The notes under the pieces were generated by a model, which was not told the origin of the DNA, did not search any database, and saw only the letters and a program-made list of their open reading frames with translations. Positions 3,448 through 55,415 of a stretch of DNA of 64,000 bases are shown piece after piece; position 1 is the first letter of the stretch; every line of letters starts with the position of its first letter. Source of the stretch: an uncultured Candidatus Saccharibacteria bacterium (lineage in GTDB: Bacteria; Patescibacteriota; Saccharimonadia; Saccharimonadales; Saccharimonadaceae); assembly GCA_946404545.1 (NCBI GenBank), contig CAMJDZ010000003.1, forward strand, positions 5,808 to 69,807, in the 5' to 3' direction. Position numbers and translations under genes: made by a program.

Positions 3448-5394
3448 TTAATAGTAGACCGGTCCGTCGTCCGGAAATGGGTCATCAGCACCAAAATCAT
3501 CGTCATCATCAAAGTCATTAAAGCCGTCGCCGTCATTATCGCGCGCACCGTATGGGTTATAGCCGAGATCCTGCAAGAAACGCGATGGGAAGTTATAATT
3601 ACGGCCGCCAAACATAAAGCGCGAGTTTGCGTAACTGAGGAACAAATCCTGCATCGCTCTCGTCATACCGACATAGGCCAGACGGCGCTCTTCCTCGACA
3701 TCCTCTGCCGATTCATCCATCGAGCGCACATGCGGCAGCAAACCTTCCTCGAGGCCAACCAGGAACACCACCGGAAATTCCAGGCCCTTTGCAGCATGCA
3801 AAGTCATTAAAGTTACCGCGTCTTTCCCCGCTTCTTCATCCGAAGACGACATCAAGGCCGCATCCGCCAAGAATTCATCCAAAGTCTCATACGTACCGGC
3901 TTCACCAATGAGCGCCGTCACGTTTTCATTGCGCTCCTCAGCCTTCAACTTATCGCCATCATTCAAATAGCCGCGATAGTCAATCTTACGCACTAATTCC
4001 TCGATAATGTCGGCTGGATTAACGCCATTCGCGTTCTTCTCGCGCAAATCCTGTAAAGTCTTTGCGAACTTCTCATATGCCGCCGCTGTTTTTGGCGTCA
4101 AACCGTCCATGTCGCCCGCAAGAATCTTCTGCACCGACTTCTCGCCAATTCCACGCGTCGGCACGTTTATTACGCGCGTCAGCGAAATAATGTCGCGTGG
4201 GTTCACAATGAGATGCAAATACGCCACGATATCGCGAATTTCCTTACGATCGTAGAAGCGTACGCCGCCCACCAACTTGTATGGCAAACGAAAATCCATA
4301 AAGGCTTTTTCAAATACTTGCGACTGTGCGTTCGTGCGATACAAAACGGCAAAATCCGACAGCGGTCGATGCATTTTCTTAATTGTCATCGCAACAAAAT
4401 GTGCCTCATCCTGCTCATCGCGCGCCTGATGTACGGTCACCGGGTCACCCTTGCCTGACTCCGTAAAGAGCACCTTGTCACTACGCTGCGTATTCTTCGT
4501 AATAATCTTCTGTGCCGCATCGAGAATATTCTGCGTCGAGCGATAATTCTGTTCTAGCTTAATTACCTTTGCACCCGGAAAATCACGCTCAAAGTTGAGA
4601 ATATTTGTAAAGTCTGCGCCGCGCCACGAATAAATCGACTGCCAGTCATCGCCGACACAGCAAATATTGCGCTCCTCATTTACGAGCAATTTGACAATCT
4701 GGTACTGAATATGGTTCGTATCCTGATACTCGTCTATCAAGATATGGCGGAAACGTTTGCTCCACTTTTCGCGGATATCTTTGCGATTCTTAAAGAGTCG
4801 TGCTACATACAGCAGCAAATCGTCGAAGTCAACCGCATCAGCCTTTACGCGCATATCTTCATAACGCTCATAGATTGCCGCAATGTCGCGCTGATTCGGG
4901 TAGTAAGCATCCGCCATCATTTCGTCCGGATCCTTACCCTCGTTCTTTGCTTTCGAAATCGCCGCCTCAACCGCTTTCGGCTTCACGCGCTTATCATTAA
5001 CATCTAATGCCTTCATTGCGCGTTTAATGAGCGCTAGACGGTCGTCAGTGTCATAAATCACATAATTCTTGCTCAGACCCACATTCTCAGCTTCTATGCG
5101 CAAAATCTTCACGCAAATCGAGTGGAATGTTCCCATCCATGGCATGAAGCTAAAAGTATTCTCGCGGTCTAGCAAATGCGCCAAACGCTCACGCATCTCG
5201 CGCGCCGCCTTATTCGTAAAAGTCAAAGCTAAAATCTCGCTCGGCAAAACCCCATTCGCAATCAAGTTCGCAATGCGGTGCGTCAAAGTCTTCGTCTTGC
5301 CAGAACCCGCACCCGCCAAAATCAGCACTGGCCCAGACAAAGTCTCGACCGCCTCTTTTTGCGCCGGGTTCAATCCCTCCAAAATTTTAGTCAT
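3448..5394 (-). CDS. pcrA: ATP-dependent DNA helicase, UvrD/PcrA family
   Basis: Helicase motifs AGAGSGKTKTLTHR, ILIDEYQDTN, VGDDWQSIYSWRGA, QNYRST, TLHAAKGLEFPVVF, RRLAYVGMTRA. ATG lies 6 nt after TGATAAAAT (leaderless-type start). Confidence 0.92.
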   Translation of the reverse strand: MTKILEGLNPAQKEAVETLSGPVLILAGAGSGKTKTLTHRIANLIANGVLPSEILALTFTNKAAREMRERLAHLLDRENTFSFMPWMGTFHSICVKILRIEAENVGLSKNYVIYDTDDRLALIKRAMKALDVNDKRVKPKAVEAAISKAKNEGKDPDEMMADAYYPNQRDIAAIYERYEDMRVKADAVDFDDLLLYVARLFKNRKDIREKWSKRFRHILIDEYQDTNHIQYQIVKLLVNEERNICCVGDDWQSIYSWRGADFTNILNFERDFPGAKVIKLEQNYRSTQNILDAAQKIITKNTQRSDKVLFTESGKGDPVTVHQARDEQDEAHFVAMTIKKMHRPLSDFAVLYRTNAQSQVFEKAFMDFRLPYKLVGGVRFYDRKEIRDIVAYLHLIVNPRDIISLTRVINVPTRGIGEKSVQKILAGDMDGLTPKTAAAYEKFAKTLQDLREKNANGVNPADIIEELVRKIDYRGYLNDGDKLKAEERNENVTALIGEAGTYETLDEFLADAALMSSSDEEAGKDAVTLMTLHAAKGLEFPVVFLVGLEEGLLPHVRSMDESAEDVEEERRLAYVGMTRAMQDLFLSYANSRFMFGGRNYNFPSRFLQDLGYNPYGARDNDGDGFNDFDDDDDFGADDPFPDDGPVYY

Positions 5395-5410
5395 ACATCT
5401 ATTTTATCAT

Positions 5411-5440
5411 CAAAAAGAGGCGCTTTTGACACGCCTCTTT
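5411..5440 (-). terminator. rho-independent terminator after the 5450-6394 gene
   Basis: Stem aaagaggcg (5414-5422) pairs with cgcctcttt (5432-5440), followed by a U-run on the minus strand. Confidence 0.7.
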
Positions 5441-5449
5441 CCAAAAGAT

Positions 5450-6394
5450 TTATAGTTTAATATCTTTTTCGGATTCTTGATCCCAGCACTTAGTGCCCTT
5501 GAAGGCTTCTTTAAGCTCATCAGTGTCATACCGGTCGCAAGAAATCGCCTGCTGCGTGCCTAGGAAATACTTCCATTCGCCATCGGTCTTGCGATAGAAC
5601 AAAGCAACCGAGTCTTCGAAGCCCACCGTAATATGCTCGTAGGTACCAGCTGGGTTTTTCTTAATCTTCCTCGTAAGCGTGCCGCCGATGTAGTTAATCG
5701 GATACTGCTTACCGTCGTCAGAGTTGTGATATGCCGCTGCTAGGTCGATAGCTAACTTTTTGTTGTCTTCGGTCAACCAATTCTCATTCGAGCAGCGATA
5801 CTCAAGCCAAGAATAGCCCGTATCATTGCCAGAACCTTCGACCTTGTTCGTATTTGAAACATGACAGTAAATACCGCTGTCGCCCTTAAAGTAGTGAGTG
5901 GTATCCTGTTCCGGAATCTCTTCGCCGTAAATGCCGAAGGTCGGTACCGCAACATTCTTCAAGCCCTTCTTCTTCAAGAGATTAATAATGCTATTGTAAA
6001 TCTGAGTAGCGCTACCGCTATCGGCGTATTTCTTAACATGGGCGCCATAAGACCTGGCCGACTCGGTCCAAAGCTTATCGCTCACCTTAACCGGCAGACC
6101 GTAATCATCATAAATCTTGTCGATAGAATAGCCGCCTTCTGGGAACGACTCTTCGATATCGTCGAGCAGATTCTGAACTTCATCTTCCTGGCTCGAAAGC
6201 AATGCCGTATTGCCAGTCGAACCGCCAGTAACACCGCCAGATTCACCGCCCTTTGCTGGGTTCAAAAGCAAAATCGCAAGCCAAACACCAAGTCCAGCCG
6301 CAATTAACGCGAAGACGATTGCAAGTATTACAGCGCCCTTGCCGCCCTTCTTTGCGGCTACCTGCGCAGTTGGTTCGTATTCCCCACTTTCCAT
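5450..6394 (-). CDS. membrane-anchored hypothetical protein
   Basis: N-terminal TM segment AVILAIVFALIAAGLGVWLAILLL; AGGGAGG SD upstream. No family recognised. Confidence 0.6.
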   Translation of the reverse strand: MESGEYEPTAQVAAKKGGKGAVILAIVFALIAAGLGVWLAILLLNPAKGGESGGVTGGSTGNTALLSSQEDEVQNLLDDIEESFPEGGYSIDKIYDDYGLPVKVSDKLWTESARSYGAHVKKYADSGSATQIYNSIINLLKKKGLKNVAVPTFGIYGEEIPEQDTTHYFKGDSGIYCHVSNTNKVEGSGNDTGYSWLEYRCSNENWLTEDNKKLAIDLAAAYHNSDDGKQYPINYIGGTLTRKIKKNPAGTYEHITVGFEDSVALFYRKTDGEWKYFLGTQQAISCDRYDTDELKEAFKGTKCWDQESEKDIKL

Positions 6395-54092: not shown

Positions 54093-54108
54093 CATGTATA
54101 ATAAAAGT

Positions 54109-54885
54109 ATGAAAAAAGTCCTCTCTTTCGATATTGATCAAACTTTGAATATTGCTAAAACGCCCATCCCGGACGAAATCGCCGTGCTTCTCCGCGACCT
54201 CTTGGATTACTACGAAATCTGCCCAATTTCTGGCCAAAAATTCGATCAATTTCTCATTCAAATCGTGAACCGACTAAAGGACGTAAACGTCACCGAGCAG
54301 CAGCTCGAGCATTTGCATCTTTTCGTCGCTCAAGGCACGCAGTACTACCGCTACAGCGCCGCCAAACATGATTGGGATCAAGTTTATAGCTATCCGCTCA
54401 CCGACGAACAGGTCGCCGAGGTTTCCAAGGCTATCCAGCAAGCCGCCGAAGAATTGGGCTACTGGGAGCAGGACAAAGTCGCCGAAGGCGATGAAATTAT
54501 CGAAAACCGCCTCAGCCAGGTCACCTTCTCTGCCCTCGGCCAAAAAGCCGGCACTGAAGTCAAATACGCCTGGGATCCTGATTGCAAAAAACGCGAAGCC
54601 ATCGTCGCTCGCACCAAAGAACTCGCCCCTGCCTACGAATACGAAATCGGCGGTACTACTAGCATCAACGCTTTCGTCCCGGGTATGAACAAAGTATTCG
54701 GCATGACTCATCTCCTCGAAGAGCTCAACGTCACCAAAGAAGAAGTTCTCTACTTTGGCGACATGACCCAACCGGGCGGCAACGATTATCCAGTCGTCCA
54801 AATGGGCGTCGACACCATCACGGTCCGCAGCCACGAAGACACCGCCTACGCGCTCCGCGGCATTCTCGCTGTTACGAAAAAATAG
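54109..54885 (+). CDS. HAD-IIB family hydrolase
   Basis: MKKVLSFDIDQTL (DxDxT), ISGQ, YFGDMTQPGGNDYP. ATG lies 6 nt after TATAAT; the track start 54094 overlaps the -10 box. Confidence 0.75.
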   Translation: MKKVLSFDIDQTLNIAKTPIPDEIAVLLRDLLDYYEICPISGQKFDQFLIQIVNRLKDVNVTEQQLEHLHLFVAQGTQYYRYSAAKHDWDQVYSYPLTDEQVAEVSKAIQQAAEELGYWEQDKVAEGDEIIENRLSQVTFSALGQKAGTEVKYAWDPDCKKREAIVARTKELAPAYEYEIGGTTSINAFVPGMNKVFGMTHLLEELNVTKEEVLYFGDMTQPGGNDYPVVQMGVDTITVRSHEDTAYALRGILAVTKK

Positions 54886-54917
54886 CGCCTCTATCTTGCT
54901 TGTGCTAAAATATAAGT

Positions 54918-55415
54918 ATGAAAAAGCATCTTTTAGCACGAAGTATGCGTGCCGGTGGGAGGTTGCTACTTCTCGTTGGTGCCATTTTTGGCTTCGGCAT
55001 GATAATTGTTTCTATTTATTCACTGATTTACCGTGCGCAGCATCCAGAAGCGCCCCAGGCGCCAGTTACGCCAGTTCCAGCTCCGAGCGTTAGCCAACCA
55101 GCCGAATCAAACCCAGTCACGACAATCATCACAACCATCGTCGCTGTTGCCCTTGCACTCGCGCTAATCATCGTTATCGCCCGCATGTACAACAACAGCA
55201 TGCGCAACGTCATCGCTAAAATCGCGAAATTACTCAAAATCAAAATCATTTCTACCGAGCTACTCTGCACTTTCGTCACCTGGACCGTCGCGACCGTTTT
55301 ACTCATCTTCGTTTTCCCAATCATCAGCATCTTCTCCCTTTTCGCATTTATTATTAACGAACTTCTCTTTGTCTTCGCATGGGGAGCCTACGGACAACCT
55401 GATTACAAAATATAA
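54918..55415 (+). CDS. hypothetical membrane protein (4 TM)
   Basis: Hydrophobic segments LLLLVGAIFGFGMIIVSIY, IITTIVAVALALALIIVIA and others. ATG lies 6 nt after TGCTAAAAT. Confidence 0.55.
   Translation: MKKHLLARSMRAGGRLLLLVGAIFGFGMIIVSIYSLIYRAQHPEAPQAPVTPVPAPSVSQPAESNPVTTIITTIVAVALALALIIVIARMYNNSMRNVIAKIAKLLKIKIISTELLCTFVTWTVATVLLIFVFPIISIFSLFAFIINELLFVFAWGAYGQPDYKI

Follow-up and report, generated by a model that had tools for sequence, protein, structure and literature searches.

Extended -10 Promoters Set against the Start Codon Suggest Frequent Leaderless Initiation in a Saccharibacteria Genome

At 11 gene starts within a 64-kb stretch of bacterial DNA (the window; C3:5808-69807 of an 801-kb metagenome-assembled genome, or MAG, of 21 contigs and 48% GC), the hexamer TATAAT, TAAAAT or TAGAAT ends exactly 6 nt 5' of the ATG. 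This geometry, listed in an earlier note on the window and present at every quoted site when the sequence is read back, raises the question of whether the hexamers are -10 promoter elements from which transcription begins at the A of the start codon, so that the message would have no leader, or whether they act in some other way or arise by chance. Evidence from the whole genome and from relatives makes a leaderless promoter architecture very probably the correct explanation. The source genome is a reduced genome of the Candidate Phyla Radiation (CPR)/Patescibacteria; its tyrosyl-tRNA synthetase (TyrRS) is 100% identical to the protein of a water-buffalo omasum 'Candidatus Saccharibacteria' MAG and 61-92% identical to those of 79 further Saccharibacteria/Nanosyncoccaceae MAGs, the majority of which come from ruminant gut.

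The promoters would be of the sigma-70-type extended -10 class (TGnTAnAAT), largely independent of a -35 element, with RNA polymerase beginning 7 nt past the box, on the A of the start codon. The resulting transcripts would carry neither a 5' untranslated region (UTR) nor a Shine-Dalgarno (SD) sequence and so would follow the leaderless route, in which the ribosome and initiator tRNA bind the 5'-terminal AUG. This mode would serve ~130-170 of the ~744 genes and about one-third of clear transcription-unit heads. The other genes would use a canonical AGGAGG-type SD, either within operons or behind short leaders, with 20-35 nt between the end of the -10 box and the start codon. All computational tests agree with the earlier proposal that the A of the ATG is the predicted transcription start site (TSS), or lies within 1-2 bases of it, and they likewise support the coexistence of leaderless and SD-led initiation in one organism. 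Where the RNAs actually begin, and how they are translated, is what we infer from these patterns.

Enrichment of the Motif at Gene Starts

Genome-wide enrichment of the 6-nt spacing (N6), proposed earlier as a check, was indeed observed over reversed-pattern and internal-ATG controls. Within the window, TANAATNNNNNNATG has 15 matches against 2.54 ± 1.62 expected (100 dinucleotide shuffles, maximum 8). Across the whole genome, the spacing between a TATAAT and the ATG that follows it has a sharp maximum at N6 (72 of 631, background ~10). Of 365 TGnTAnAAT boxes, 76 have an ATG at N6 and 35 at N7; the reversed pattern gives a single match against these 76. Gene starts were taken from 744 gene models, built with a codon-usage score and covering 90.6% of the genome. 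TA[ATG]AAT-N6-ATG occurs among the 5' candidate starts of 96 of the 744 genes versus 6 of 4275 internal in-frame ATGs (0.14%), and spacings of N7, N8 and N9 are also enriched at gene starts (31, 14 and 17, respectively, versus a background of ~3). With a relaxed definition of the box (TAnnnT, 5 of 6 matches, N5-N8), 179 genes qualify and ~9 are expected by chance, which leaves ~170 of 744 (23%). The peak is restricted to ATG: ATG occurs 123 times at N6, and GTG (12) and TTG (22) remain at background with no peak. A normal SD word of the AGGAGG type is present in 396 genes.

The N6 sites of the window and the genes behind them are as follows.

5392..5406 (-), pcrA/UvrD helicase, TGATAAAAT-N6-ATG, terminator hairpin immediately 5'
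11853..11867 (-), APH-family kinase-like gene, TGCTAGAAT-N6-ATG, terminator hairpin 5'
14837..14851 (-), HAD hydrolase, TATAAT-N6-ATG
26605..26619 (-), bacterial PH-domain protein, TGGTAAAAT-N6-ATG
30109..30123 (-), prepilin peptidase (A24), TGGTAAAAT-N6-ATG
33217..33231 (-), pilT-type ATPase, AAGTATAAT-N6-ATG, without the TG extension
36011..36025 (-), dnaG primase, TGTTATAAT-N6-ATG, divergent from the 205-aa hypothetical gene
36185..36199 (+), 205-aa hypothetical protein, TGCTATAAT-N6-ATG
41433..41447 (-), argS, TGGTAAAAT-N6-ATG
49679..49693 (+), 313-aa gene, TATAAT-N6-ATG, overlaps the upstream stop (TAATG)
51902..51916 (+), tyrS, TGGTATAAT-N6-ATG, box adjoins the stop codon of the preceding gene
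54097..54111 (+), HAD/PMM-like gene, TATAAT-N6-ATG, terminator hairpin 5'
54906..54920 (+), 165-aa membrane protein, TGCTAAAAT-N6-ATG
13055..13069 (-), 5-codon mini-open reading frame (MFYYC), TTGACT-17-TATAAT-N6-ATG, SD-led gene downstream

The TG extension stands at -15/-14 in 9 of the 11 quoted sites and is absent at pilT and at the HAD gene at 54109. Four window matches to TANAATNNNNNNATG lie beyond those 11, at 30111(-), 49691(+), 13057(-) and + strand 10049-10063; the first two are gene starts missing from the earlier list, those of the prepilin peptidase and the 313-aa gene. The 49691(+) site is ambiguous: it may be a promoter internal to a transcription unit or have arisen by chance at the TAATG junction. 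An SD-led gene opens with TTG at 13000, 57 nt downstream of the mini-open reading frame (13040-13069(-), MFYYC and a stop), whose promoter is of consensus type. The short frame could encode a leader peptide, or the message could simply be leadered, with TG following its +1 A by coincidence.

Pfam agrees with the names pcrA/UvrD, APH-like kinase, HAD, bPH_2, T2SSE/pilT, dnaG and argS, and with those of the SD-led genes efp, ndk, mscL and pyrG that had been set against them. Among the latter, efp, ndk and pyrG do have an SD of the GGAGG/AAGGAG type; mscL has only a weaker AAGGG, scored as non-SD under the motif rule used. In the modelled MscL (37679-38083(-)) and NDK (27078-27689(-)), the Pfam domain begins at residue 39 and residue 42, respectively; these two have either N-terminal extensions or real starts further downstream. 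The suggestion that leaderless starts are common on housekeeping genes holds loosely in the window (pcrA, dnaG, argS, tyrS, pilT, pilD); across the genome, leaderless and SD genes show no difference in codon bias (p = 0.70).

Promoter Nature of the Box

The box has the properties of a promoter. A sequence logo built from the 96 N6 sites has T at -15 (0.80) and G at -14 (0.69), a pyrimidine at -1 in 92% (T 0.67, C 0.25, G 0.01), and A at +1. The weak or absent -35 remarked on in the window holds at genome scale, with ≤0.15 bit of information at -35 in leaderless promoters. An identical box lies ≥15 nt upstream of 72 SD-led genes, which retain a weak TTG at 17-nt spacing, and in 76% of these an A occupies position 7 after the box. 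The preferred +1 is thus marked independently of any ATG, in agreement with the general placement of bacterial TSSs 7 bp past the -10 box (PMC12641261).

The promoters may nevertheless be real and the TSS lie slightly upstream of the ATG or be scattered, so that leaders of 1-5 nt would be formed and initiation would still proceed without an SD. The enriched N7-N9 classes fit such short leaders, as does the occurrence of the same genes at N6-N9 in relatives, and so do five near variants in the window, all found as quoted (N9 at 14059, 43931 and 50837; N10 at 24370; N11 at 18171).

14057..14074 (-), near-leaderless variant, TAAAAT-N9-ATG, predicted leader ~2-3 nt
43929..43946 (-), near-leaderless variant, TATAAT-N9-ATG
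50822..50839 (+), near-leaderless variant, TGGTATAAT-N9-ATG
24354..24372 (+), near-leaderless variant, TTGACA...TGATATAAT-N10-ATG
18169..18188 (-), short-leader variant, TGGTAAAAT-N11-ATG, AAGGA inside the leader

At 43929..43946(-), the ATG yields a signal-peptide-like N terminus, and the longer TTG reading frame extends into a terminator hairpin; the equivalents of 24354..24372(+) in relatives keep TATAAT ~8 nt 5' of the ATG. Short leaders as the rule are, however, unlikely. N6 is the dominant class and comes with a strict pyrimidine at -1 and A at +1, and the conserved A of the leadered promoters falls exactly at position 7. In addition, a 5' UTR of ≤5 nt is conventionally counted as leaderless in the differential RNA sequencing (dRNA-seq) literature, which weighs against treating short leaders as a separate explanation.

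The genomic context of the box also points to a promoter. The leaderless share is 35% at divergent junctions (65 of 184 genes) versus 14% of co-directional genes <20 nt behind a neighbor. Of 29 leaderless genes with a terminator hairpin upstream, 14 have its T-run finishing 4-9 nt ahead of the box, so that the intergenic module is only ~45 nt long. Compact terminator/promoter/ATG modules of this kind are seen in the window, for example at 5392-5440(-), 11853-11900(-) and 54060-54111(+). The first 36 nt of the predicted leaderless mRNAs fold less stably than internal stretches of the same genes (-3.1 versus -5.2 kcal/mol, p = 7e-7).

Untranslated RNAs carry the same element. In 31 of the 41 tRNA genes (7 of 9 in the window), a -10 box of the gene's own, mostly TGn-extended, ends 8-13 nt short of the mature 5' terminus, which predicts pre-tRNA leaders of only ~2-5 nt. 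The seven in the window are:

10264-10337 (+), tRNA
14877-14949 (+), tRNA
20826-20898 (-), tRNA
20965-21038 (+), tRNA
22056-22127 (-), tRNA
26931-27003 (-), tRNA
50724-50795 (-), tRNA

The RNase P RNA (RF00010, 242 bits) is encoded at C3:2411-2756(-), immediately beyond the window. TGTTAAAAT stops 7 nt upstream of the 5' end given by the model, and this RNA, too, seems to be transcribed nearly without a leader. The RF00010 match rules out the absence of RNase P as the cause of the short tRNA leaders.

A box that stands ahead of untranslated RNAs is not a ribosome signal. This bears on the proposal that TAnAAT is not a promoter but an AT-rich, non-SD translation element carried inside a longer mRNA, the arrangement of Bacteroidota-type genomes (GeneMarkS-2 group B). 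The element is indeed AT-rich, occupies the position of a ribosome binding site and also occurs in 35 of 258 tightly packed co-directional genes. Nonetheless, the TG at -15/-14 and the pyrimidine/A pair at -1/+1 are signatures of RNA polymerase, and the element is found upstream of a separate SD both in orthologues and in the 72 leadered genes. The closeness of the terminator T-run in 14 leaderless genes and the ordinary AGGAGG-type SD of 396 genes argue in the same direction, and the motif does not sit in a transcribed leader of all genes and act on the ribosome, as in group B. A translational role of this sort is very improbable, and the promoter explanation is retained.

The 76 exact TGnTAnAAT-N6-ATG matches comprise 65 gene starts, 3 in-frame ATGs slightly further in and 8 others, of which 3 are tRNA promoters and 5 lie ahead of short reading frames. 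The idea that the eight non-genic hits mark leader peptides or noncoding RNAs fails for the three tRNA promoters and found no support for the rest: no Rfam match was obtained in the 3 of the remaining 5 regions that were scanned, and no amino-acid-biased peptide is evident among the short reading frames behind the non-genic hits. Strong TTGAC(A/T)/TGnTATAAT promoters were noted at C2 ~2400-2550(-), C1 ~48750-48900(-) and C9 ~13635-13760(+); the regions behind them, with reading frames of 45, 37 and 14 codons, gave no Rfam match and may encode small proteins or unknown RNAs.

True Start Codons and Turnover in Relatives

Four starts in the list of open reading frames had been called wrong in the earlier note, the longer frames being thought to run into promoter sequence. 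This is borne out for pilT (33219), dnaG (36013) and HAD (54109). At the fourth, the kinase-like gene, the candidate starts at 11855 and 11861 are two codons apart and orthologues do not discriminate between them; the ATG at 11861 adjoins the -10 box, and 11855 would be the start by promoter logic. The N terminus MEDAKEEI is conserved in DnaG, and MKKVL is the conserved start of HAD 54109 among relatives. In pilT, AAGTAYAAT-N6(7)-ATG and ME(Q/N)SGQ are kept in 11 of 11 genus members, in which the upstream frame opens variably; orthologues from other families have a clear SD-led start in 2 of the 8 examined. Pfam domains begin close behind these codons: UvrD at residue 8, the DnaG Zn-ribbon at residue 5, and Arg_tRNA_synt_N and Hydrolase_3 (HAD 14839) each at residue 3. 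Comparison of N termini and domain boundaries thus identifies these ATGs as the true starts. PilT itself (32023-33219(-), loci L083-L101) has a genus-specific N-terminal extension of ~45-55 residues, variable and of low complexity with Pro/Ala/Gln-rich repeats, that is absent in orthologues of other families.

The sites might be suspected of arising by chance or from base composition, or of being wrongly called starts whose real codons lie downstream behind internal SDs, because TAnnnT words are frequent in DNA of 48% GC and the gene models are heuristic. Such a reading is already refuted by the controls (15 observed versus 2.5 expected on shuffling in the window, 1 reversed match versus 76, and 0.14% of internal Met codons) and by the Pfam domains and conserved orthologue N termini that begin at these ATGs.

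Within the genus, the geometry is conserved. Syntenic regions of ~60 kb from five genus members retain it at dnaG, argS, pcrA, the gene for the PH-domain protein and the hypothetical gene divergent from dnaG, and the letters of the N6 spacer vary. It is conserved in 5 of 5 relatives at dnaG; the 205-aa hypothetical gene retains the MDNK.YLD start and the -10 at N6 in 5 of 5; the PH-domain gene is leaderless in geometry at N6-N8 in 5 of 5; argS has the -10 at N6-N9, and pcrA keeps the arrangement in a genus relative.

Other genes change mode. In the syntenic relatives, tyrS and HAD 54109 are SD-led (HAD in 3 of them), and both genes have recently switched from short SD leaders. The ATG of tyrS (MKLSE) is identical in 80 species; upstream of it lies either TGnTATAAT-N6 or TGnTATAAT followed by ~22 nt, AAGGAG and N6-7, which places the box of the leadered form ~29 nt upstream. 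At least 6 switches between modes are needed on the TyrRS tree, and tyrS of the window species is 1 of 4 independent SD-to-leaderless switches within an otherwise SD-led clade.

Several points weigh against a leaderless start at so many genes. The gene models come from a heuristic of our own and not from a trained gene finder. About 9 of the 179 genes in the relaxed set are expected to be chance matches, and in 35 genes of leaderless geometry an SD-like word also occurs close to one or another candidate start. Some N6 sites may be coincidental, such as 49691 at its TAATG junction, and the TSS could fall 1-2 nt to either side of the A. Finally, the MAG contains no 16S rRNA, GATCACCTCC hitting only complements of SDs, so that the anti-SD is not seen directly.

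Phyletic Spread, Known Counterparts and Significance

The number of TGNTANAATNNNNNNATG matches per genome is 59-101 in the genus itself, 8-19 in other families of the order and 0-64, mostly <30, in 150 genomes across Patescibacteria; the reversed pattern gives 0-6 in all groups. These counts indicate that leaderless geometry occurs phylum-wide at a low level and is amplified in certain genera, including this one. The distribution within the family is bimodal (121 genomes: 85 with ≤30, 3 with 31-39 and 33 with ≥40). Consensus extended -10 boxes are overall more numerous in the genus. A difference between families in the use of the TG extension alone is partly rejected as the cause, since the excess in the genus remains 3-5-fold above other families when TG is not required.

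Ribosomal protein S1 was considered in this connection. Its absence is rejected: an S1-like protein of ~360 aa with four S1 domains matches TIGR00717 (bS1, positions 12-346) in 119 of the 121 family genomes, at 238 bits, under the curated cut-off of 577 bits. The S1 score correlates negatively with the leaderless count (Spearman -0.50, p = 2e-8, 121 genomes, kinship ignored), a correlation that is a lead and not evidence.

A joint reading of these observations, possible in our view though somewhat short of probable, is that near-zero leaders are the transcriptome-wide default in a subset of the genera of the family. Transcription would start from extended -10 promoters independent of a -35, at the AUG for mRNA, at or near the mature 5' end for the RNase P RNA and ~2-5 nt before the mature end for tRNA, with promoters often fused to the preceding terminator. 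Individual genes would pass back and forth many times between the leaderless state and a short SD leader, even among closely related genomes, and the bimodal leaderless load would track the divergence of the truncated four-domain S1. Such a picture hints that, in an episymbiont with a reduced genome, the ribosome has co-evolved with leaderless initiation.

Outside this phylum, the mechanism is well known. Genomes of GeneMarkS-2 group C have frequent leaderless transcription, accounting for 25-50% of operons, with the Pribnow box placed 6-8 nt ahead of the start codon; they include Actinobacteria (for example, Mycobacterium tuberculosis) and Deinococcus-Thermus (for example, Deinococcus deserti) (Lomsadze et al., 2018; PMC6028130). 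The present architecture is ordinary group C: judged by sequence alone, it agrees with that group in everything that can be computed, with the Pribnow box 6-8 nt before the start of operon-first genes, an SD on the remaining genes and a share of ~35% of divergent-context genes to set beside the published 25-50%. It differs in belonging to Patescibacteria/Saccharibacteria, in a 0.8-Mb genome of the episymbiont type, and in its stereotyped TGn-extended -10 boxes with nearly no -35, which often adjoin the terminator of the previous gene. The start codon is strictly ATG here, whereas mycobacterial leaderless starts also use GTG.

Extended -10 (TGn) promoters work without a -35, as in the galP1 type of Escherichia coli, and are common in Firmicutes. 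The sites described here resemble that class in having TG at -15/-14 in 69-80% of cases and a negligible -35; unlike galP1-type promoters, they are coupled to zero-length leaders and also drive the genes for tRNAs and RNase P RNA from a short, constant distance. Nanoarchaeum equitans, which lacks RNase P, reportedly transcribes its tRNAs without leaders, as Randau and colleagues are said to have described in 2008. The likeness is in layout only, each tRNA gene being served by a separate promoter set close to the mature 5' end and at constant spacing from it; here, in contrast, leaders of ~2-5 nt are predicted and RNase P RNA is present.

Literature searches found no published leaderless initiation in Saccharibacteria/TM7, Patescibacteria or CPR, and nothing on topic concerning Shine-Dalgarno sequences in Patescibacteria. 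The only TSS set for the phylum consists of 188 low-resolution sites of TM7x inferred from RNA-seq, used in PMC12641261.

Because the mechanism is textbook, the result is useful and not surprising. Gene finders that favor the longest reading frame or rely on an SD will place starts wrongly in such genomes, as 3 of the 4 window examples confirm, and the 15-nt TGnTATAAT-N6-ATG module could be used in the Saccharibacteria expression constructs now being developed. Frequent leaderless initiation, as predicted here, would be extended to the CPR, whose reduced ribosomes make an attractive system for the coexistence of leaderless and SD-led initiation. The bimodality between sister genera, together with the recent switches of tyrS and HAD, provides a natural experiment on how initiation modes evolve.

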